Assembly: GCA_026023565.1 (NCBI GenBank)
Contig: JAPETS010000016.1
Span: 248,001 to 312,000 of the forward strand
DNA length: 64,000 nt
Reading direction: 5' to 3'
Source: Cirrosporium novae-zelandiae
Lineage: Eukaryota
The first letter of the stretch is position 1. Every line of letters begins with the position of its first letter. The notes beneath the pieces are model-generated. The model did no database searches. It saw only the letters and a list, made by a program, of their open reading frames with translations, and had not been told where the DNA came from. The position numbers and the translations under genes are program-made. Shown here in pieces: positions 46,864 to 64,000 of the stretch.

Positions 46864-49800
46864 ATGTCCATGGCCTCATCTGCTCAACCTGCCGTTGTTC
46901 GAAGTCATTCAAATCGTCGCCAAAATTCTTATGCTCCTGAGGGGCCACAACGATCACGATCCACCACCACCAGAACTTCTGCTCCCTCCACCGCCCGACG
47001 TGCATCCTATGACCGGCCTCCACCTGCCCAACAAGCGACCCTCGCCAAAATAGCCCAACGAGATTATGAGACTGCGAACGTAGCTCGACCTCGTTCATCC
47101 CGTCGAAGCTCATCCCAAGACAGAAATAATTATAACCCTCCACAGACTCATTCGCAATATAATCCTGCAATGAGTGGCACAACAGCTGTTCAGCACTCGG
47201 ACACGTCAAATGGCGGTCCAGTCCCAGTTCACCCTGCAGCACCAGCTCCAGCCGGCGATCGATCCGCTCATAACAATGGCATGGTAGGAAGAAGAAGAAC
47301 TACGATAGATTCACCATCAGGACATTGGGCTTTGGGGAAAACCATTGGTGCTGGAAGCATGGGAAAGGTCAAACTGGCGAAAAGTTTAGAAACGGGAGAA
47401 CAGGTACGAATTTGATTCTTTAATGGTGATACCCATCTAGTATCTACGCTAACACTTTCCGCTTCAGGTTGCCGTCAAGATTGTCCCGAGACAATCTGCC
47501 GAAGAACATCATAACACCAGAGATGCAGAAAGGGCGGATCGGTCCAAAGAGATTCGTACGGCCAGAGAAGCTGCCATCGTTTGCTTGCTCAACCATCCCT
47601 TCATCTGCTCGATGAAAGATGTTGTGCGTACTCACTATCACTGGTATATGATTGGGGAATATGTGAATGGCGGGCAGATGCTTGATTATATAATTTCACA
47701 TGGCCGTCTTAAAGAGAAACAGGCACGCAAATTTGGTCGCCAGATTGCAAGTGCGTTGGACTACTGCCATCGCAACAGCATCGTCCACCGAGATCTAAAG
47801 ATTGAAAATATCCTCATCAGCAAGACGGGCGATATCAAAATAATCGATTTCGGGTTGAGCAATCTTTTTGCACCCCGAGGTCATCTGAAGACGTTCTGCG
47901 GTAGCTTGTACTTTGCGGCCCCAGAACTTCTACAAGCAAAACAGTATACGGGTCCTGAGGTAGACGTCTGGAGTTTTGGAATTGTGCTTTATGTACTTGT
48001 CTGCGGGAAGGTGCCTTTTGATGATCAAAGCATGCCTCAGTTGCATGCAAAAATCAAAAGAGGGGTGGTCGATTATCCACAGTGGCTATCTTCTGGTAAG
48101 TACCTGAAAAGCAATTTTGGGTATTTTATTAACAGTGGTTTGTAGAATGTCGCAACCTTATCTCGCGTATGCTTGTCACCGATCCACGCCAGCGTGCTAC
48201 CTTGCAGGAAATCATGAACCACTCGTGGATGGTCAAAGGTTTCAGTGCACCCCCAGAGAACTATCTTCCTCCGCGTGAACCCCTCGCCCTCCCTCTAGAC
48301 CCCGAAGTCATTGACAAAATGACTGGCTTTGATTTCGGATCTGCTGAGTATATCACCACTCAATTAACCAAGGTTCTTGAATCTGAAGAGTACCAACATG
48401 CCCTCCGTCTGGCGCGGGAGCAAACAAATCAGGTACCAGGGGCCGAAAAACCTCGAGGGTTTATGGGATTTTACAAACGTCGCAACTCAGCCAACAGTAA
48501 GGATATATTGACCAATAGCTCAACCGACATTCTTCAGCTAGGAAATGACCCGATCAATGCATTTCATCCATTAATATCTGTTTATTATCTCGTCCGGGAG
48601 AAGCAAGAGAGGGAAAGGGCCGAAGCAAATCCTGGAGTTGCCACGACACAATCAGGAGAACAGCCGCTAAAATTACCAGATCTTCCAGCACCAGAAGCAG
48701 CTTACACAAACATTGCAACACCCGAAATGCCAGGGGAGAAGCCAACGGGCGGCAGAACAAGAGCCCGTGCGAAGACACAAGGGGAAGATGATATAGTGGA
48801 GGGTGTGAAGAAAATACCAGGAGCCCCACCCGCGATTCTCGCTCCACCAGACCCAGCACCACCAAAGAAGGAGAGCATGGCCACCGGAATCCTACGAAGA
48901 TTCAGCACAAGGAAACACCGTGAGCCTCGTGATTTACGATCCCAGGACCAAGCTCCAGCCGTCCAGCTCCAACCACCCAATGATGCTGGGGTTCCTCTCC
49001 GCAAGAGTTTCAGTGTCCGTCGGGCACGAAACCGGGAACCTTCCCCATCAGTCACGAATCTCCCTACACAACCACAAGCCCAGGATCCTGCTATGCTTGG
49101 CCCACCAGTCGCTGAATCCGGCTGGAAGGTGAGTAAGGGTCTAGGTAGGTCTGCCAGTGTTGCCTCAGGTGAACACCGCCGGCGTCAACAGGAACGAAGA
49201 GGTGTAAGTGCAGCTGCTGCGACACCGCCTAGCCCAAGGCCTAGTGTTCCTGCTATTCCTAACGGGGTAGAAGCCTTCAAGGAAGACCTTAAATCTGATT
49301 TGCCTGTGCGCTCAGCAACATCCAGAGCAAAGTCTCTTGGTCATGCACGCCGTGAAAGCATTCAAGCACGTCGAGCACGGCGAGAAGAGGCACGCGAGGC
49401 CAACCTTCCTGAAGAACCCGAAGGAGCTGCTGTCACTGCCAAGCTCACCGAGAGCACGGAAAACATGAAGCCCGTTTATCTCAAAGGTCTTTTCTCGGTC
49501 TCTACTACCAGTAGTAAGCCTCTTGCGATTATTCGTGCGGACATTATTCGGGTTCTCAAACAACTTGGTGTCGAATTCACCGAAGTCAAAGGTGGATTCA
49601 GCTGCCGTCACTCTCCTAGCATTGATCTCAACAAATCTGAGGCCACGCCCCCCAGCCCTCCGCTCTCTGGCAGTCATCGCCGACATATCTCGTTGGGTTT
49701 CATCGGTGGTGACCGCGAACGAGAGGGGCATGATTCTCCTAAGCTTAGCAAGACGCGCTCGTCCTCTCGACGCCGGCCTGCCAATGCGGATCATAGTCTC

Positions 49801-50049
49801 AGCAACTCGGAGGACTCGGAAGAATATATGCCACGTCCAAGCATGGCACAAGACCGTGATCGTATTGCCGGGGAGACTACCACACGTGTTCAGAATGACC
49901 TTGGAGACAATATGGTACTACGGTTCGAGGTTTTTGTAGTCAAGGTACCATTGTTCAATCTGCATGGGATTCAATTCAAGAAGGTCGCGGGTGGTACGTG
50001 GCAATATAAGAATATGGCGCAACGTATCCTAGATGCATTGAGACTTTGA
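46864..50049 (+). CDS. KIN1: Kin1/Kin2 (PAR-1/MARK-family) Ser/Thr kinase with a C-terminal KA1 domain; 3 exons
   Basis: [53 protein letters not shown] and [23 protein letters not shown]. Introns 47404-47467 and 48096-48145. Confidence 0.96.
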
Positions 50050-53994: not shown

Positions 53995-55495
53995 TCAGAC
54001 ACGTCTGAGGTTCCTCCAACCAAACGACGAGGTCTGTTTCACCACGTTCACGTCCCCGTCCCCTTTCTCAGCCTCCAGCCGTTTTAGATCCCTGACCTTC
54101 CACGCCCTGACGCACGCCACAAACAAGCCCGAAATGATGTATATGCACCCAGCAAATATCTGAGGATGCAAATACACGTCCCCGGTTTTCGATCTCATTT
54201 CCAGCGCGATGGGTTCCGAGAACGTCGTCGGCAGGACCAGGACTAGCCAGGTGAGGCTCAGACAGGCGGGAAGTTCTTTTAGGCCGACGACCTCGGCGCC
54301 CACGGGAGCAACCGCGGTCCAGTAGGTGCCGGATACGGTGCCGACGATCAAGGCAAAGAAGATGAGAACGCCGTATGACTTGGCGAAGATCCAGACGACG
54401 AGGCAGAGGAGGCCGCAGACGAAACTTGCGGCTGTGGCAATGTTGATGGGGCCGACGGCATCGCCAAACATGCCGATCAGGGGGCGGCCGATTCCCTGAC
54501 CGAGGTTGAGCAGTGCCCCGATGATGGAGCCCTGTTGTGTGCTGAGGCCGATGCTGGTGGCATACGAGGGGAGCGAGAAGAGGAGGACAACGTATCCGAG
54601 GATATAGGAGATGCCCCAGGCAAGGTAGAGGTTGAATTCGAGACGGCGGAAGAGCTTGTAAGAGAATGGAGCCGTGGACACGCCGATTGCTTTGTTGCGA
54701 TCCCGGATTAGAATGCCGGAAATGAAGTTGCAGGTGAAGGATAGGATCCCAAGTACGCGAAATGCCCACGGTAGACCAATATTTTCGATCATTGCGCCTG
54801 TGGCGAGGTTGTATACCATGGCTCCGATTCCGCTTCCGCCAGTTGCGATGCCGTTGGCAATGTTCCTGCGGGTGGTGAACCACTGTGACGGCACGGAAAT
54901 CGAACCTGTGAACAGAAAGCCCATGCCAATTCCAAAGCATGCCCCTTGGGTAAGAAATAGCTGCCAGATTTGATTTGTAAACGACGCGGCGATGAGAGCA
55001 ATCGTCTGAAAGGCCACGCCAAACATGATTGTGGTTCGGCTTCCATATTTGCCTAGGATCCAGGTGGCCACGGGAGCTGTTATAAAGGAGACTGAGATGG
55101 AGAGACCACCAACAAAGGCGTATTCAAGCGCCGTCGCTCCAGGGTAAGTGTTGGTTGATAGGTAATGGGCCAGAAATACGCCGAATGTCTGTTCGTTGAA
55201 AGAGTAAGCAGAGTAGAAAGACGAGATATACAAGATGGGCCTGCCAAACACTATTGATTCCCCACGAATTCCCATTGATCAAGCACACACAGGCAACACA
55301 AACCCACCCATAACCTCCGTTGGGGGGTTCATCCTTCACGGTCAAGATGGAAGCCTCTTCAGGCTCCCTTTTCCCTATAATAGTTGGAGGTTGTGGCTGT
55401 GGTTCCCATAAGCTCGGAACTTGTGTTTGCGTTGTGGCAGTAGAATCGTCCTTGAAATCGTCATTTTGATCTTTCTTCATCTCCATATTCCCCAT
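53995..55495 (-). CDS. MFS transporter, monocarboxylate porter (MCH-like) family; 2 exons
   Basis: EPPNGGYGWVCV...WGINS|TFGVF, GACFGIGMG, QWFTTRR..ANGIATGGSGIG, GRPLIG..GDAVG and many hydrophobic helices. Intron 55249-55189. Confidence 0.9.
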
Positions 55496-56621: not shown

Positions 56622-59201
56622 TTATCGGTTATCTCCCAAGTTTAGCCAGCTCATATCATCTGGCCTCGGTGGTCTCGATGGCCCCGAACGCCCTTCAGTC
56701 TTAGTATCTTGTCTATCATTTCCTCCATAGTCACCCCGCTCACTCCCATAATCACTCTCATAGCTAGGCCACATCGTTCCGCCTGTGGCTCCACTATCCC
56801 TTACTCCTTGTCCTTGTCGCTCTGCAATGGCTGCAGGCATCGCCGGCATAGGGAAACTTGGTATTCGAACTGATTGGTCGCCATAGTAGCTGCTGATGTC
56901 GTACGCGCTGCTGGCCGGCCGAGCCACGCTGCTTGCACGACCAACATCCAAATCACCATCCTTCGGCAAGTCGGCATTTCTACTTAGGTCATAAGCGGAA
57001 CTTGAGGGACGGCCTTGGGTTATCCGGTTGGGATTGGCATTGGCATTATCGTCTCCTGGGAGATCCCCGTTTCGAGATAGGTCATAAGCGCTCGATGAAG
57101 GGCGTGGTTGTGCGGGTGTTTGGAGAGGCGGTTGTGGGGTGAGAGGAATCACATACTCGGTATTGCGGTTGAGGTCGTATGTGCTGCTAGAAGGGCGAGG
57201 ATCCCACCCATTTGCAGCATCAACTGGTGTCCAAGGCTCCTGAATGCTAGCTGACATTCCGGGGGAAAGGCTGTTAAAATGTCCATCGTCCGAATCCCGC
57301 GAGTGCATTGATACAGAGGAGGTTGATATCCGGGCAGTCATACCTTCGGTCAAGGCTAGCCCTGCTCCATCGATCGAAGGATGTTCGATCGTTGGAGAAG
57401 CGCTGTGCACCGAGTCAAAATGCTGGCGGCTCGCTGCCACTGCAATTTTAAGTGGTGGTATATCCGCGGATATATGATGCACTGAAGATGGAGTATAGTC
57501 TAAATACGCGGAAGTGGCTTCTGAACGTCGGGCTGCTTCGGCATTGGACGGCTCATGGGCACTCGCGGTTGAGAAATATTTACTCCAGCCGGTGTCATTG
57601 TTGCGGGGCTCGGTGCGTGCGACGCCTGTTGCTGCTGCTTTGGGTTTGCCAAGCTCAGGGTCGAATGTGACTTTGGATGCAGATGCATCTGGGTTGGCCT
57701 GTGGGCGATATGTATCGGGTTTCCCGCGACCGAATATGGAAGCAGGGCTATGGGTTCGGCCGAAGAAACTTTTTGTTTCTCGGTATCTTGGTCGGCCTGT
57801 TAGGATTGCCATTGAATCCTGAGAACTAGCAGAGTAAACTTGCCTGCGGCCAGGTGCCCCTTCGGCTTCTTTCATGTAATCGACACCGCGATCGGCAAAA
57901 TCCATCCCCTCTTTGTTTTCGATGGGGTAGCTGATTTGCCGCTTATGCAGTGCCGCATCCTTCTTTGCACGGCACCATTTTAGGAGGATAAGAAGGAAGA
58001 CGAGCATTGCGGCGATGCCAAATATAGTGCCTAAGGTGGCCCCGAGAATAGTCAGTGTTGGCAGATTTGTGGTGCTGGAGTCGGAAGTTGCAGCTGCATC
58101 GCTGGATGTCGTTGTTGACGATGACGACGACGAGGCTGCAGGGGAAGAAGAAGAAGTGGAGGAAGAGCTGGATTCGGTTGGCTTTGAGTCTGTTACAGTG
58201 GCTGAGTTTCCAAAGAAGTGGGTGGTATTTAGCCAGGTGTTGCCGGTCTGGTTGAACATTGATAGAGAATCTTCACTGTTTCCCCCTGAGATGACAATCA
58301 AACCACTAGAACTCTGCGCCATGGAAAAGTTGGTTCTCTTTGTGTCAGGGGCATATGAGTCGTTGTAGGTTGGAAAATTCGAGAGCGTCAGATCGCGCTC
58401 CGCCAGAAAACGAGAGCTGGATGACGATGAAGATCCAACATCATCACCCCAAGAGGCCACATCTCCATTGGCATCTATCAAAGCATACGTACTGACAACG
58501 TTAGGAGAAACGTCCATACTGAAGATTTCCAAGATCTTGCTGCCATCGCTTCCGTCAATAAGTGCCGTTTGCACCTTGCTTCGATTTTCCAGACTTTGTA
58601 CCACACCAACGTTAAGGTTCACCCATCCGTTCGTAGAATCAAATGTGAAAATCTCGTAGTTGGAGCTATCCCCACCCATTTCGACAGCATGGCTACTGTT
58701 AAAGGGCATTACGATGGGATTCAATCCGGGAGGTGCATCTGAGGAAAAGGATTGCACATTATACGGTGATACAGTAGAAATCAGGAATGTCGAAGATGAA
58801 AGTGTAGTATCTCCAGTCTGCGAGCCCGCATAGACGAGAATTGAGGAAGAGTCGTTCAGGAATGCCGAACCGTGGTACACTCTATCTGTGGTCACTTGAA
58901 CAAGAGGCGAAATGCTTTCCCATGACTTGTCGTTAAAAGAATAGGCCTGCAGGCCCGGGTAGTTGGCGATTGAGCTGGTCCCGCCGACAACCCAAAGGGC
59001 AGGCTTTAGGCTATTTCCATCCAAATACCCCAAATTGCACGTTGCGCCAGTCACCGAAACTCCATTAGTCAGTTTTGACCATTCCGCATCTTCTTCTAAA
59101 GGAAGCTTTAGGAAAGCTTTGGGGGAATAAACGTAAAGTGTGTTGTCGTAGATAACGGAGCAATGGTTCTCCAACGTCACAGGGGGTGATGGACTTGGCA
59201 T
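56622..59201 (-). CDS. Single-pass membrane protein: kelch/beta-propeller-like N-domain, Ser/Thr stalk, TM helix, repeat-containing tail
   Basis: 859-aa ORF with kelch-like LWVVGG, ILVYAG, VEMGG and IVISGG strands, a Ser/Thr-rich stalk, and TM ILGATLGTIFGIAAMLVFLLILL followed by KWCRAKK. Confidence 0.8.
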   Translation of the reverse strand: MPSPSPPVTLENHCSVIYDNTLYVYSPKAFLKLPLEEDAEWSKLTNGVSVTGATCNLGYLDGNSLKPALWVVGGTSSIANYPGLQAYSFNDKSWESISPLVQVTTDRVYHGSAFLNDSSSILVYAGSQTGDTTLSSSTFLISTVSPYNVQSFSSDAPPGLNPIVMPFNSSHAVEMGGDSSNYEIFTFDSTNGWVNLNVGVVQSLENRSKVQTALIDGSDGSKILEIFSMDVSPNVVSTYALIDANGDVASWGDDVGSSSSSSSRFLAERDLTLSNFPTYNDSYAPDTKRTNFSMAQSSSGLIVISGGNSEDSLSMFNQTGNTWLNTTHFFGNSATVTDSKPTESSSSSTSSSSPAASSSSSSTTTSSDAAATSDSSTTNLPTLTILGATLGTIFGIAAMLVFLLILLKWCRAKKDAALHKRQISYPIENKEGMDFADRGVDYMKEAEGAPGRRQVYSASSQDSMAILTGRPRYRETKSFFGRTHSPASIFGRGKPDTYRPQANPDASASKVTFDPELGKPKAAATGVARTEPRNNDTGWSKYFSTASAHEPSNAEAARRSEATSAYLDYTPSSVHHISADIPPLKIAVAASRQHFDSVHSASPTIEHPSIDGAGLALTEGMTARISTSSVSMHSRDSDDGHFNSLSPGMSASIQEPWTPVDAANGWDPRPSSSTYDLNRNTEYVIPLTPQPPLQTPAQPRPSSSAYDLSRNGDLPGDDNANANPNRITQGRPSSSAYDLSRNADLPKDGDLDVGRASSVARPASSAYDISSYYGDQSVRIPSFPMPAMPAAIAERQGQGVRDSGATGGTMWPSYESDYGSERGDYGGNDRQDTKTEGRSGPSRPPRPDDMSWLNLGDNR

Positions 59202-60235: not shown

Positions 60236-60272
<37 letters not shown>
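60236..60272 (+). repeat. G37 homopolymer (poly-C on the sense strand of the downstream minus-strand gene)
   Basis: Direct count. Confidence 0.9.
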
Positions 60273-61373
60273 CTGGGGGCTAGGAGGAGGGGAAGAGGAA
60301 GCCGAAAGAGAGCGAGAGAGCCCGTTTTACGCGTTGGATGTTTGGATGTAACTTGTTGGAGACTGATAGATTGATTAGACCTTATTCCCAGCTTAGGTAT
60401 CATTCATCATCATTATTATTATTATTATTATCATCACTTAATTAATTCATTAGTACTGGTAATAAAACATAAAAGGATAACAGAAGAAGACTTTTAATTG
60501 ACTGTTCGTCGATGATTATCAAATTTACCTTTTATTTCATCATCACCAATCATTGTGCATTTGTTGGTGATTCTGTGATAGCATATCCGAGACTGACTTT
60601 TTAGAGGTTTGGTTGAGTTGATCAGCTGGGTCAATATACCTACCTCTGGGTATTTGTTTGGTTGATGGTTAGTTCGAGTAATGCCAAACAGTCGGGTGAA
60701 AAGGACCAGACGTACAGTATCATTCCCAAGTGGGCAATTGGGTTTCGGGTTGTTTCTTCCCTTGTTCTTTTCCCCTGCATTAGTTTCCACTTAGTCTTGT
60801 CGCACCATTCGGTCATTCAGCCCCCAACACCCCCCCCAACACCCCCCAACACCCCCCAATACACCCCTCAGACACCCCCCCCCAAACAAGGGAACCTAGG
60901 TTCCGCCCGCCTCCGTCTATACCTTTTCTCCAGATTTTCCAGGCCTTGAATTTCCTTCCACATGGATATCATCATAAGTCATCATTCATATCCTCGTAGC
61001 CTTGTCTTCAACAATCATGGGAAATTGAAATTGCCCATAAGCACCATCTGCCGTCATCGAGAAGATGCTTAAACATCATGGATCAACGTTGAAAATCTCC
61101 CGAATCAAAATGATTTCATCTTACGAACCCCCCTTGGTGTCTGCCTACCGTGTCTGCCTCGCTATCAAGGAACCATTGGAAGAGTAAACTGATCGAAAAC
61201 AGAAACCCTAAAAAAATACTAATTCATTCTAGAAGTATGCAGTCCAGCTCATAGAGGGGCCAGCCTCTTGAAGGATTGGCCCACAAACATGTAAAGAAGT
61301 GAAGGGAAACAGCAATCCATTCCCGTTCCGTCCCCTGATTGACCCTCAACCTTTTATTAACCCTCTGATGCCC

Positions 61374-63143
61374 TTATGAAGAACTGCTCACTCCCGTGGT
61401 ACTGATGATGAAACTGGCAGCTTTGTCGGCATCCTCGCCATATGACAAGTGACCTGTTCCGCTGCCAGTGCCCGTAGACCCGCAGAGCGAATCTCCGCTG
61501 GCACAGAATGATTTCACCTTGCTGTCCGCAATACTTCCCAGAGAAGAGCCGTTCTCGGGATCTCCAAACACTACAACCGCATCTACCTGATCTGCGCTGA
61601 GAGAGCCAGCTGCATTGTGGACTACCATGGCACCTTGAGAGTAGCCGGAGATGGCAATCTTAGTGTTGGGACACTGTGATAGGGCTTCCTTGACTAGTTT
61701 TACCATGACTGGACCACCGTTGGCGCCCAATTCGGCATTCCCCTGGACGTAGATAAGTTAGCATTGTATCACCTAATATTTGTCCATGTGTCGAAGAAAC
61801 AAGTAAAATCTTACCGCAATGCTAGCATCATAGTCAACTCCTTGAACGTTGACCGAGTTATCACCCAGTGACGACTTCAAAGCACTGAACATTGGAGGAC
61901 CGGCGATCGTGCCAACGTTGCCACTTTCACTAGAGCCACGAGCAAAGACGACGGTCAAAGGCTTGCAGGAGGCTTTGTTGGTGACATCGTTTTCCTCCGA
62001 GGATCCTGTTCCAGTTAGAGAACCCAGGGACAAGCTTTAAGGGTCAGCACCTCTTGCTTTAACAGTTGAGCCAGAGAGACCACTCAACCCAGATGAACTA
62101 CCAAGCGAACTCAACGACCCAAACCCAGAAGATGTACCAGAGCCCAATGATCCAAGCCCTCCAATACCGGAAGTCAGGGAACCCAATCCAGAAGAGGTGC
62201 CAGAGCCAAGACTAAGACCAGAGGTCAGAGAGCCCAGCCCAGAAGATGTTCCAGAGCCTAGGGATCCGACTCCGCTGGCAATGCCTTGACGTTTTTCCAA
62301 CCCCGTTAAATCGCCAAGTCCTGAGGAGCTCTCGGATGACCCTCCTAAAGAACTCAACGATCCAAGCCCGGAGGACGAGCCAGAGTCCAATGACCCAAGA
62401 CCAGATGTCAGAGAACCCAAACCAGACGATGTGCCTGTACCAGAGCCCAAGGAACCCAAAGACCCAAGACCACTTGCAATCCCTTGACGTTTTTCCAATC
62501 CTGTTAAATCACCGAGCCCCGAAGAGCTTTCAGATGATCCTCCTAGAGAACTCAACGACCCAAGCCCAGAAGATGAGCCAGAGTCCAATGAGCCAAGACC
62601 AGAGGACAGAGAGCCCAAGCCAGATGACGTGCCTGAACCAGAACCCAAGGAGCCTAAAGACCCAAGACCACTTGCAATCCCTTGACGTTCCTCTAAATTT
62701 ACTACGTCACTGGGTTCTGAACTTGCAGGCGACCCTCCAGCCGAACCCAATGATCCAAGCCCAGAAGATGATCCAGAACTCAAGGAACCAAGTCCCGCGG
62801 ATGCAGTTGGAATAGCAAAGCTCGATCCTATTCCACCGGGGATGCTGATACTAGGTAGCCCTGACAAACTCTCAAGACCACTAACACCCCCCAGCCCACT
62901 GAGCTGTCGCTTCTCGATTTTCCCAGCCTCTCCTGTAGGAATGCTGAGTGATGAACCTTCTGTGAGCGGAATGCCCATGCTTGGAATGCCCATACTAGGC
63001 GAGCCTGTTGGAAATGGAAAATCGCCCGATGGGATTGGGAATGGAGGAGATAGTAGGCCGGAGGCACGACGATACGGTCCGGCTGGAGCTGCGAATGCAG
63101 ATGCGGTAAAAGCCAGAATGGCTGCTGCTGTTTCAGTCTTCAT
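61374..63143 (-). CDS. Cutinase (CE5) with a long N-terminal Kex2-processed Gly/Ser/Leu repeat region
   Basis: Signal MKTETAAAILAFTASAFA and repeats ending in EKR/EER. Cutinase domain CKPLTVVFARGS, VQGVDYDA, CPNTKIAISGYSQG (GxSxG), VVFGDP, FCASGDSLC, HLSYG. Clear intron 61814-61743. Probable intron 62088-62035 removes the in-frame TAA at 62039-62037. Confidence 0.85.
62091..62684 (-). repeat. 198-nt (66-aa) coding tandem repeat: two near-identical units plus a diverged third
   Basis: The QGIASG codons start at 62684, 62486 and 62288 (period 198). Confidence 0.92.
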
Positions 63144-64000
63144 ATTGCTGGCTGGTGGGGGATAACGAGGAAAGATGGATTCTGGAAAATTAATTCAATG
63201 AAATAAAGAATGTCAAAGCTATCAAAGCTTGAAGAATGAATGAATATGCAGGACTGATGCTGATGAACAAGAAGACAGACTTGCAGAACCACTGCAGCGT
63301 CTTTATAGTAAAGGGAGGTCTAGGTAGACACACACTAGAATCAAGATGCACGTATCACGCTCAAACTCTCGAGTTCACAGTAGATGGACCGCGGCTAATG
63401 AAGCTTGATGTGCACTAAAACCGATTTAAGGAAATATGAAAGGATCGAAAACCGTCCCGTGGACCTAGGTAATGTAAAGCTAGGTACAAGGACAGAACAG
63501 ACTGTACAATAATATCAGATGCTGGGATATATGTAGGTTTAGTGGAGCCTATGAGCCACAAAAAAGCTATATGTCGTCAATTCCCTAGGCAATAGGGCTT
63601 CAAACTTCAAGATACTACCGAATTGGTCTAATTTCAAAAGGGTATGCATATATACCGAGGCGATTTTCCATTTCCCGAGTAGCAATTGTAGATAAATAGG
63701 GATAGTATAACACATTAAGGATGAACGTGGACCACTATAGAGCAAGGTCTTAAGACAGTGCTTCTGGGTGAGCAGCCCTTGGTGGTGATCATTAAACTCA
63801 GATCAGCAGAGAAGGTTATAAGAAACGTTTCGGCACATCCGAGGCAGTTTCAACGTCTTTGGAGGCTGCATGAACATCGGGTTATGTGCCGGGCGAGGAA
63901 GTATTCACAGGGTCATACAACCACAATGGAAAAAAGTAGGAATCCCCCCGTTATTTAATATAAAGACCCATTTATTTGGAAGGATTGGCACAAAGCTACT

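Follow-up and report, generated by a model that had tools for sequence, protein, structure and literature searches.

On the minus strand of the Cirrosporium novae-zelandiae DNA analysed here (the window, 64,000 nucleotides in length) lies a gene that joins an array of Gly/Ser/Leu-rich peptides to a cutinase. Its parts are listed below with the neighbouring genes and two upstream motifs; residues are numbered along the spliced product.

61374..63143, minus strand: whole gene (signal peptide, Gly/Ser/Leu peptide array and cutinase), 550 amino acids with both introns spliced
63090..63143, minus strand: probable signal peptide, residues 1-18, ending in AFA and followed by AP, as read from the sequence
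63066..63089, minus strand: short propeptide, residues 19-26, with PYRR at its end
62907..63065, minus strand: segment 1, residues 27-79, Pro-rich (10 Pro), with IEKR at its end
62685..62906, minus strand: segment 2, residues 80-153, starting with Gln, 64% Gly+Ser+Leu, ending in LEER, a non-dibasic site
62487..62684, minus strand: 66-aa unit A, residues 154-219, starting with Gln and ending in LEKR
62289..62486, minus strand: 66-aa unit B, residues 220-285, identical to unit A at 64 of 66 residues
62052..62288, minus strand: 79-aa unit C, residues 286-364, related to unit A and ending in VKAR
62006..62050, minus strand: candidate 45-nt intron with a weak donor, containing an in-frame TAA
61815..62005, minus strand: exon that encodes the N-terminal portion of the cutinase domain (Cys378, FARG)
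61743..61814, minus strand: canonical 72-nt intron (GTAAGA, GCTAAC, CAG)
61374..61742, minus strand: last exon, with Ser463 (GYSQG), Asp512, His526, Cys452, Cys508, Cys515 and the stop
63655..63660, minus strand: CCTCGG (FarA/CTF1-type motif), 512 nt upstream of the start, a weak lead
63839..63844, minus strand: second CCTCGG, 696 nt upstream of the start, a weak lead
48169-50049, plus strand: end of a KA1-domain kinase gene, an ordinary neighbour
53995-55275, minus strand: MFS transporter, an ordinary neighbour
56622-59201, minus strand: Kelch-like membrane protein, an ordinary neighbour

The N-terminus is hydrophobic, has the typical look of a signal peptide and aligns with homologues, Pro20 being invariant in 26 of them. 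Five Kex2-type sites follow: PYRR-A after residue 26, IEKR-Q after 79, LEER-Q after 153, LEKR-Q after 219 and LEKR-Q after 285. The signal-peptide-like start, these segment ends and the Gln after the last four had been predicted from the letters alone and were all recovered on the minus strand; a possible sixth site, VKAR (residue 364) directly upstream of the enzyme, was absent from that list. LEER and VKAR are non-dibasic, and KR with Gln next to it occurs at three sites only. Units A and B agree with their first description as near-identical: they share 172 of 198 nucleotides, consist of Gly, Ser and Leu to 80-83%, are free of Cys and carry Lys or Arg at the cleavage site only. Tandem Repeats Finder detected a period of 198 in the array, and a Pfam search returned no family match for the Gly/Ser/Leu tract.

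None of the three neighbouring genes matched DUF3328, and frames upstream in locus L090 look like the splicing factors Clf1 and Prp31. CCTCGG, described as a FarA/CTF1-type motif in the available part of PMC4117967, is not enriched in the window (28 matches against 26 expected). Downstream of the gene, the intergenic stretch has about 36 consecutive G at window positions 60238-60273 and, at 60823-60885, a short tandem repeat rich in C.

The cutinase and its junction with the peptide array

Pfam PF01083 was matched on the two parts of the domain with E-values of 1.5e-11 and 9.1e-30 (45 and 104 bits, against a cut-off of 25.9), and the score rose to 146 bits when the domain was read through. The motifs GYSQG, GDSLC and HLSY are present, and Ser463, Asp512 and His526 as well as Cys378, Cys452, Cys508 and Cys515 are invariant in an alignment of 26 sequences. 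AlphaFold gave a confident cutinase fold, with residues before 370 at a pLDDT near or under 50, and the best solved match was the Trichoderma reesei cutinase 4PSC (E 2e-13, probability 1.00), also the closest solved structure by sequence, for which the best stretch begins at query residue 373. The T. reesei enzyme (4PSC/4PSD/4PSE) has the same alpha/beta fold, GYSQG serine, Asp-His pair and four Cys, at 41-42% identity over about 170 residues. However, its N-terminal extension is a short lid, and known cutinases measure 20-25 kDa (PMC8577158, available part), whereas the domain here comes after 345 residues of Gly/Ser/Leu peptides that contain 5-6 processing sites. C-terminal to the enzyme, neither a GPI-like nor a binding domain was seen. 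As judged from its sequence, the gene encodes a CE5 cutinase with a full triad, predicted to hydrolyse cutin or other esters.

The original prediction of an intact cutinase in frame with the peptides held for the frame and for the three motifs but not for intactness, as three in-frame stops interrupt the reading. Two of them lie inside the canonical 72-nt intron (61814-61743), at the position of which the Penicillium-like loci L002 and L003 are also interrupted. The third is a TAA at 62039-62037, at the boundary between peptides and enzyme, and it can be removed only via the 45-nt intron 62050-62006, with donor GTGCTG, branch CTAAC and acceptor CAG. A public gene model (P0002), labelled as a hypothetical protein of C. 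novae-zelandiae, agrees with the spliced product at 550 of 550 residues and leaves out 62050-62006; being derived from the same DNA, it is a prediction and lends no independent support to splicing.

A broken or mis-assembled junction, in which the TAA is a true stop or a consensus error and only a 368-aa peptide precursor is made, would account for several features of this interval. The donor GTGCTG is poor, lacking the G that the consensus usually has at +5. The last 30 nt (10 codons) of the candidate intron read in frame like the repeats, with 165 of the 124,138 10-mers of the window scoring as high, and its final codons resemble coding segments of homologues. In addition, five genomic homologues (L002, L003, L004, L014 and L015) carry the tract and the start of the enzyme in one open frame with the junction uninterrupted, indicating that the interval is not an old intron. 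Against a broken copy, the interval has a branch site and a CAG 8-13 nt from its end, and this genome has consensus-like introns of similar size, 46-59 nt. Few codons could be covered by such an in-frame intron by chance: 17 of 5,872 in the 12 long frames of the window with introns of at most 60 nt (170 at up to 120 nt), and 47 of 2,454 in eight homologous tracts (182 at up to 120 nt). The enzyme carries no other lesion, and it is the only match found in a PF01083 search of the genome, a count that is a lower bound. Donor statistics, drawn from 20 of those Fungal_trans matches (129 in all) that contain stops, were too noisy to decide the matter. We consider that the junction intron is probably spliced in this copy, at least partially, and that a broken copy, a reading independent of what the cutinase family does, is doubtful although it carries real weight. 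The interval itself would be either coding sequence turned into a weak intron, or a nonsense change, or an assembly error.

Selection, periodicity and probable processing of the peptides

A kexin with subtilase catalytic motifs, a P domain and a membrane anchor is encoded in the genome (L082). In the available part of PMC8528282, Kex2 prefers Lys or Arg at P2 and an aliphatic residue at P4 and tolerates other P2 residues, Glu included, so that LEER and VKAR are plausible but weaker sites; one third of predicted Kex2 substrates remained uncleaved in vitro (PMC2515848, available part). Together with the Gln that follows 64 of 111 dibasic sites in the long tracts of homologues, compared with 16 of 64 in other, short-extension cutinases (counts from related and hence non-independent rows), the kexin bears out the proposed Kex2-type processing as plausible, and the precursor is very probably cleaved. 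Since KR-Q also occurs at those 16 short-extension sites, it may in part be a copy of the usual end of a propeptide. Pyroglutamyl KEP peptides are documented, and a Gln start favours a protected N-terminus (PMC9769878, in part); the N-terminal Gln of the released peptides would probably cyclise to pyroglutamate. Peptidase M28 gave nine matches in the genome, none of which could be resolved to a glutaminyl cyclase.

A gap-free comparison of units A and B revealed 24 synonymous and 2 non-synonymous differences, both Ser/Thr (dS 0.61, dN/dS 0.024, Fisher p 5.5e-13), and this synonymous excess indicates that the unit sequence is under purifying selection. Units A and C gave a dN/dS of 0.07 over 58 aligned codons, and catalytic domains of homologue pairs gave values in a comparable range (0.03-0.15). 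Other internal comparisons were looser (0.24-0.57, with 0.45 for segment 2 against unit A), and between species the tract showed 0.15-0.32, above the values of the enzyme, gapped dN/dS on such low-complexity sequence being biased and the between-species tract values biased downward.

These data bear on the possibility that the precursor is secreted mostly without cleavage, its cutinase carried on a flexible, O-glycosylated stalk whose KR-Q motifs are relics of N-terminal tandem duplication. The Ser+Thr content is 37%, the tract is disordered in both AlphaFold runs, and site-free tracts exist in Pleosporales and Diaporthe, as would be expected of a stalk. A plain stalk would nevertheless tolerate substitutions, yet LEKR-Q is unchanged between the units despite a silent-site dS of 0.6, and the sites, with an aliphatic P4 and Lys-Arg in a disordered context, fit the Kex2 motif (PMC8528282, available part). 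We regard an uncut stalk as quite improbable.

The leucines recur every 3-4 residues and not every 2. Hydrophobic residues are in excess at lag 3, with a z of about 4 for each of the 66-aa units, and avoid lags 1, 2 and 5. The depletion at lag 2 has a z of about -2 for a single unit and of -12.5 for the set of 13 Eurotiales extensions. The maximum of the hydrophobic moment lies at 110-120 degrees (z about 8), with high values still at 100 degrees (z 5.3), and at 160-180 degrees the moment falls under that of shuffled sequences. A lag-3 excess was found in all four homologue groups tested (13, 7, 5 and 4 proteins, chosen by hand). The peptides had been predicted to be amphipathic or amyloid-prone; the moment upholds the former, whereas the depleted spacing of 2 and the enriched spacing of 3 lend no support to a beta-type amyloid pattern. 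The pattern fits short amphipathic helices (alpha, 3-10 or polyproline II), with the reservations that a high Gly content disfavours helices and that AlphaFold gave the tract no structure, a single-sequence run on three units reaching a pLDDT of 38.

An ESM Atlas model of P0002 residues 108-364 looked beta-solenoid-like (ice-nucleation protein, TM up to 0.72 by query). This likeness rests on a model of low confidence (mean pLDDT 0.57), falls under the naming bar of the tool and stands against the AlphaFold disorder. No feature match for the tract was found in the ESM Atlas, where P0009 gave cutinase clusters only.

Gly/Ser/Leu tracts in homologous cutinases

Homologues were collected as 289 proteins with a catalytic domain, 29 cluster members being left out. 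In this set, which is biased because it was seeded by long proteins, 136 carry a long tract, defined as N-terminal, at least 80 aa long and at least 33% Gly+Ser. The reservation first expressed, that G/S-rich extensions might already exist in related cutinases, is therefore justified, and the array is not unique, such tracts being common in this cutinase branch. The survey of CE5 homologues for N-terminal KR-Q-type repeats that had been suggested turned up internal Kex2-type sites in 22 of the 136 long-tract proteins, this gene included (27 scored an internal site, and five mis-started or frameshifted models, P0005, P0008, P0150, P0242 and P0317, were dropped). The holders belong to Penicillium, Onygenales, Fulvia, Zasmidium, Taxawa, Meristemomyces, Neophaeotheca, Diplodia and others. 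This gene has the most internal sites, four; P0297 also has four, one of them in a mis-started lead. The full-length 419-aa multi-site member P0101, from a 1,439-base Logan contig, lacks the intron of the catalytic domain, which suggests a spliced transcript.

A rapidly built tree covered 187 catalytic domains, the yield of the first two homologue searches; with 18 multi-site rows, of which one is a mis-started model, the multi-site label needs 10 changes, at least six of them at well-supported branches. Its scatter indicates that sites were gained or lost repeatedly. A site at most 22 residues from the enzyme was found in 52 long-tract homologues, and many Eurotiales members have a single tract bounded by two sites. 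By contrast, 71 of the 136 long-tract gene models (Pleosporales, Diaporthe, Cytospora and black aspergilli) have no site past residue 40, so that release is not required, and the tract may work tethered or released.

Gene models in this family vary at the tract. Those of Aspergillus oryzae RIB40 and A. novoparasiticus (P0084 and P0085, 210 aa) lack it, whereas the A. flavus members (P0038 and P0082, 339-348 aa) of RIB40's 90% cluster have it; in the former two it seems to have been annotated away as an intron, and the tract may thus have been overlooked. Close Aspergillus and Penicillium models (P0018/P0019/P0107, P0016/P0106, P0110/P0268/P0270 and P0242/P0257) differ by short in-frame pieces at the junction, some of which contain the last KR site; these differences could reflect either alternative splicing that switches between tethered and released forms or unreliable models.

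Other extensions were seen as well. On the plus strand of L014 (372-2600) and of L015, an open frame of 714-724 aa runs ahead of the cutinase, with a Gly-rich part, an acidic Ser/Thr/Asp repeat stalk and two Gly/Ser/Leu peptides started by KR-Q. Related cutinases carry Gly/Val repeats after LEER in Aspergillus californicus (P0288, partial) and Asp/Leu/Ser repeats in Penicillium verhagenii (P0281).

The tract could be a pro-region or lid that covers or chaperones the enzyme during secretion and is discarded after the Kex2 cut with no role outside. Such a role would match the two-site single tract of many Eurotiales, which is the usual layout of a pro-domain, and the N-terminal loop over the active site of 4PSC (PMC8577158, available part). 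However, no match of the tract to that lid was reported, the best stretch starting only at residue 373, and one enzyme has no need of three near-copies held at dN/dS 0.02-0.07. Gln starts that favour a protected N-terminus (PMC9769878, in part) would be unnecessary for waste, and the 71 site-free homologues could not shed the tract via these sites. A discarded pro-region thus appears improbable.

A further explanation is that the peptides act alone, as a Rep1-like hyphal coat or as membrane-active agents, the cutinase merely sharing their promoter and secretion route. Their units are strongly conserved in sequence, and retention of the junction intron would make the gene produce peptides without enzyme. 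Their size and Kex2 spacing resemble those of the Rep1/Hum3 repeats (31-55 aa; PMC4617103, available part). On the other hand, the tract is tied to a single cutinase branch, in which many members could not cleave it off, and a weak test with a low-complexity query, on the 8,000 top-scoring candidates of 30-301 residues, gave no stand-alone tract relative. Most lytic peptides, moreover, are positively charged, and the units are not. We judge independent action of the peptides quite improbable.

A proposed role at hydrophobic surfaces

The best explanation in our view, though one we hold tentatively, is that a Kex2-processed precursor co-secretes surface-active peptides with their own cutinase. 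The signal peptide would be removed, after which a Golgi kexin would cut the KR and RR sites, and probably LEER and VKAR too, and the products would be the CE5 cutinase, a Pro-rich piece and four Gly/Ser/Leu peptides that start with Gln and measure 66-79 residues. In water the peptides would be unfolded, with clusters of 3-4 leucines, spaced by 3-4, between Gly/Ser spacers; on a wax, cutin or oil surface these clusters would form short amphipathic helices, the Ser face of which may be O-mannosylated. Wetting or coating of such a hydrophobic surface, or of the hypha, by the peptides would then ease access of the enzyme. In relatives the tract would either stay attached to the enzyme or be released, and since half of them retain an attached tract, the functional unit is probably the tract as such and not its release. 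Beyond the anatomy, selection, periodicity, family spread and kexin, all of which were observed, we see an even chance that the peptides are surface active and benefit the enzyme.

Parts of this arrangement are known from other systems. Hum3 and Rep1 of Ustilago maydis likewise have a signal peptide and amphipathic repeats separated by Kex2 motifs, the Rep1 peptides acting on hydrophobic surfaces and Hum3 ending in a folded hydrophobin domain (PMC4617103, available part). The Rep1-type trait of amphipathic Kex2-delimited peptides is present here, the moment exceeding that of shuffled sequences at 100-120 degrees. Compared by description only, they differ from this gene in having 12-17 repeats of 31-55 aa, against 3-4 of 66-79 aa here, where the C-terminal part is an enzyme and the hydrophobic period is 3-4. 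KEPs share the secreted precursor with repeats between Kex2 sites (PMC6339444 and PMC7329392, available parts). When the rules of those papers were applied by hand, cutting at KR/RR (after residues 26, 79, 219 and 285) gave five fragments, where at least four are asked for, and L082 supplies the host kexin. Strict cutting left only two like fragments before the C-terminal piece, where three or more repeats of similar sequence, each bounded by dibasic sites and no longer than 100 aa, are asked for: fragment 80-219 measures 140 aa and a dibasic end is lacking in unit C, so that three repeats are reached only if LEER and VKAR count.

Among the KEPs in Table S2 of PMC7329392 (available part), one, RDI86499.1 of Venturia inaequalis, carries a Cutinase profile. 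The word cutinase is absent from the main texts of three KEP papers, PMC7329392 and PMC6339444 among them, and gave no match in the text supplements of PMC6339444, which may contain only part of the KEP table. The available part of the CE5-wide phylogeny PMC8577158 discusses lids and does not use the word 'linker', and available passages on AN10346, Afu2g14420 and tglA could not be linked to this cutinase subfamily. In the literature searched, which lay outside subscription journals, we found no description of cutinases with Gly/Ser/Leu tracts or multiple Kex2 sites.

A precedent for an enzyme precursor is protein 365456 of Coprinopsis cinerea, a GH128 enzyme from which Kex2 releases a pyroglutamyl peptide detected by MS (PMC9769878, in part); it yields one 8-residue peptide without repeats, whereas several long amphipathic peptides accompany the cutinase here.

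A comparison can also be drawn with ALPS helices, although these are cytosolic sensors of membrane curvature while the peptides here are secreted, and the likeness is one of analogy only. In both, large hydrophobic residues are sparse and the polar side is rich in Gly/Ser and poor in charge. ALPS helices insert into membranes from unstructured loops (PMC10165475, available part).

For the recruitment of a cutinase there is precedent in Aspergillus oryzae. RolA is a surface-active partner of the cutinase CutL1, and the genome studied here gave no match to HsbA or hydrophobin in what was an uninformative search. HsbA brings CutL1 to a hydrophobic surface (PMC4117967, available part), a function that is proposed here by analogy only. 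HsbA and RolA are separate folded proteins, whereas the putative recruiting partner here would be unfolded peptides of the same precursor.

The architecture is real, selected, recurrent and built of known parts, and the subfamily seems undescribed. On the most far-reaching reading, a widespread and undescribed ascomycete branch of cutinases would carry its own surfactant module of Leu-faced Gly/Ser helices, tethered in some lineages and in others repeatedly turned into pyroglutamyl peptides set free by Kex2, that recruits or activates the enzyme on wax, cutin or polyester, and in the present gene the weak, stop-containing junction intron could set the ratio of peptide alone to peptide plus enzyme; taken as a whole, we consider this unlikely.

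Cutinases act at a solid, water-repellent surface, and reaching that surface limits both the decay of plant litter and the enzymatic recycling of polyester. The finding answers the call, made in the available part of PMC9769878, to screen Kex2 substrates with carbohydrate-active domains. If the tract is a built-in adsorption aid, it would be a natural binding module, and its secreted amphipathic peptides would form a new class; common laboratory and industrial moulds possess the tract, which makes it testable there at once.
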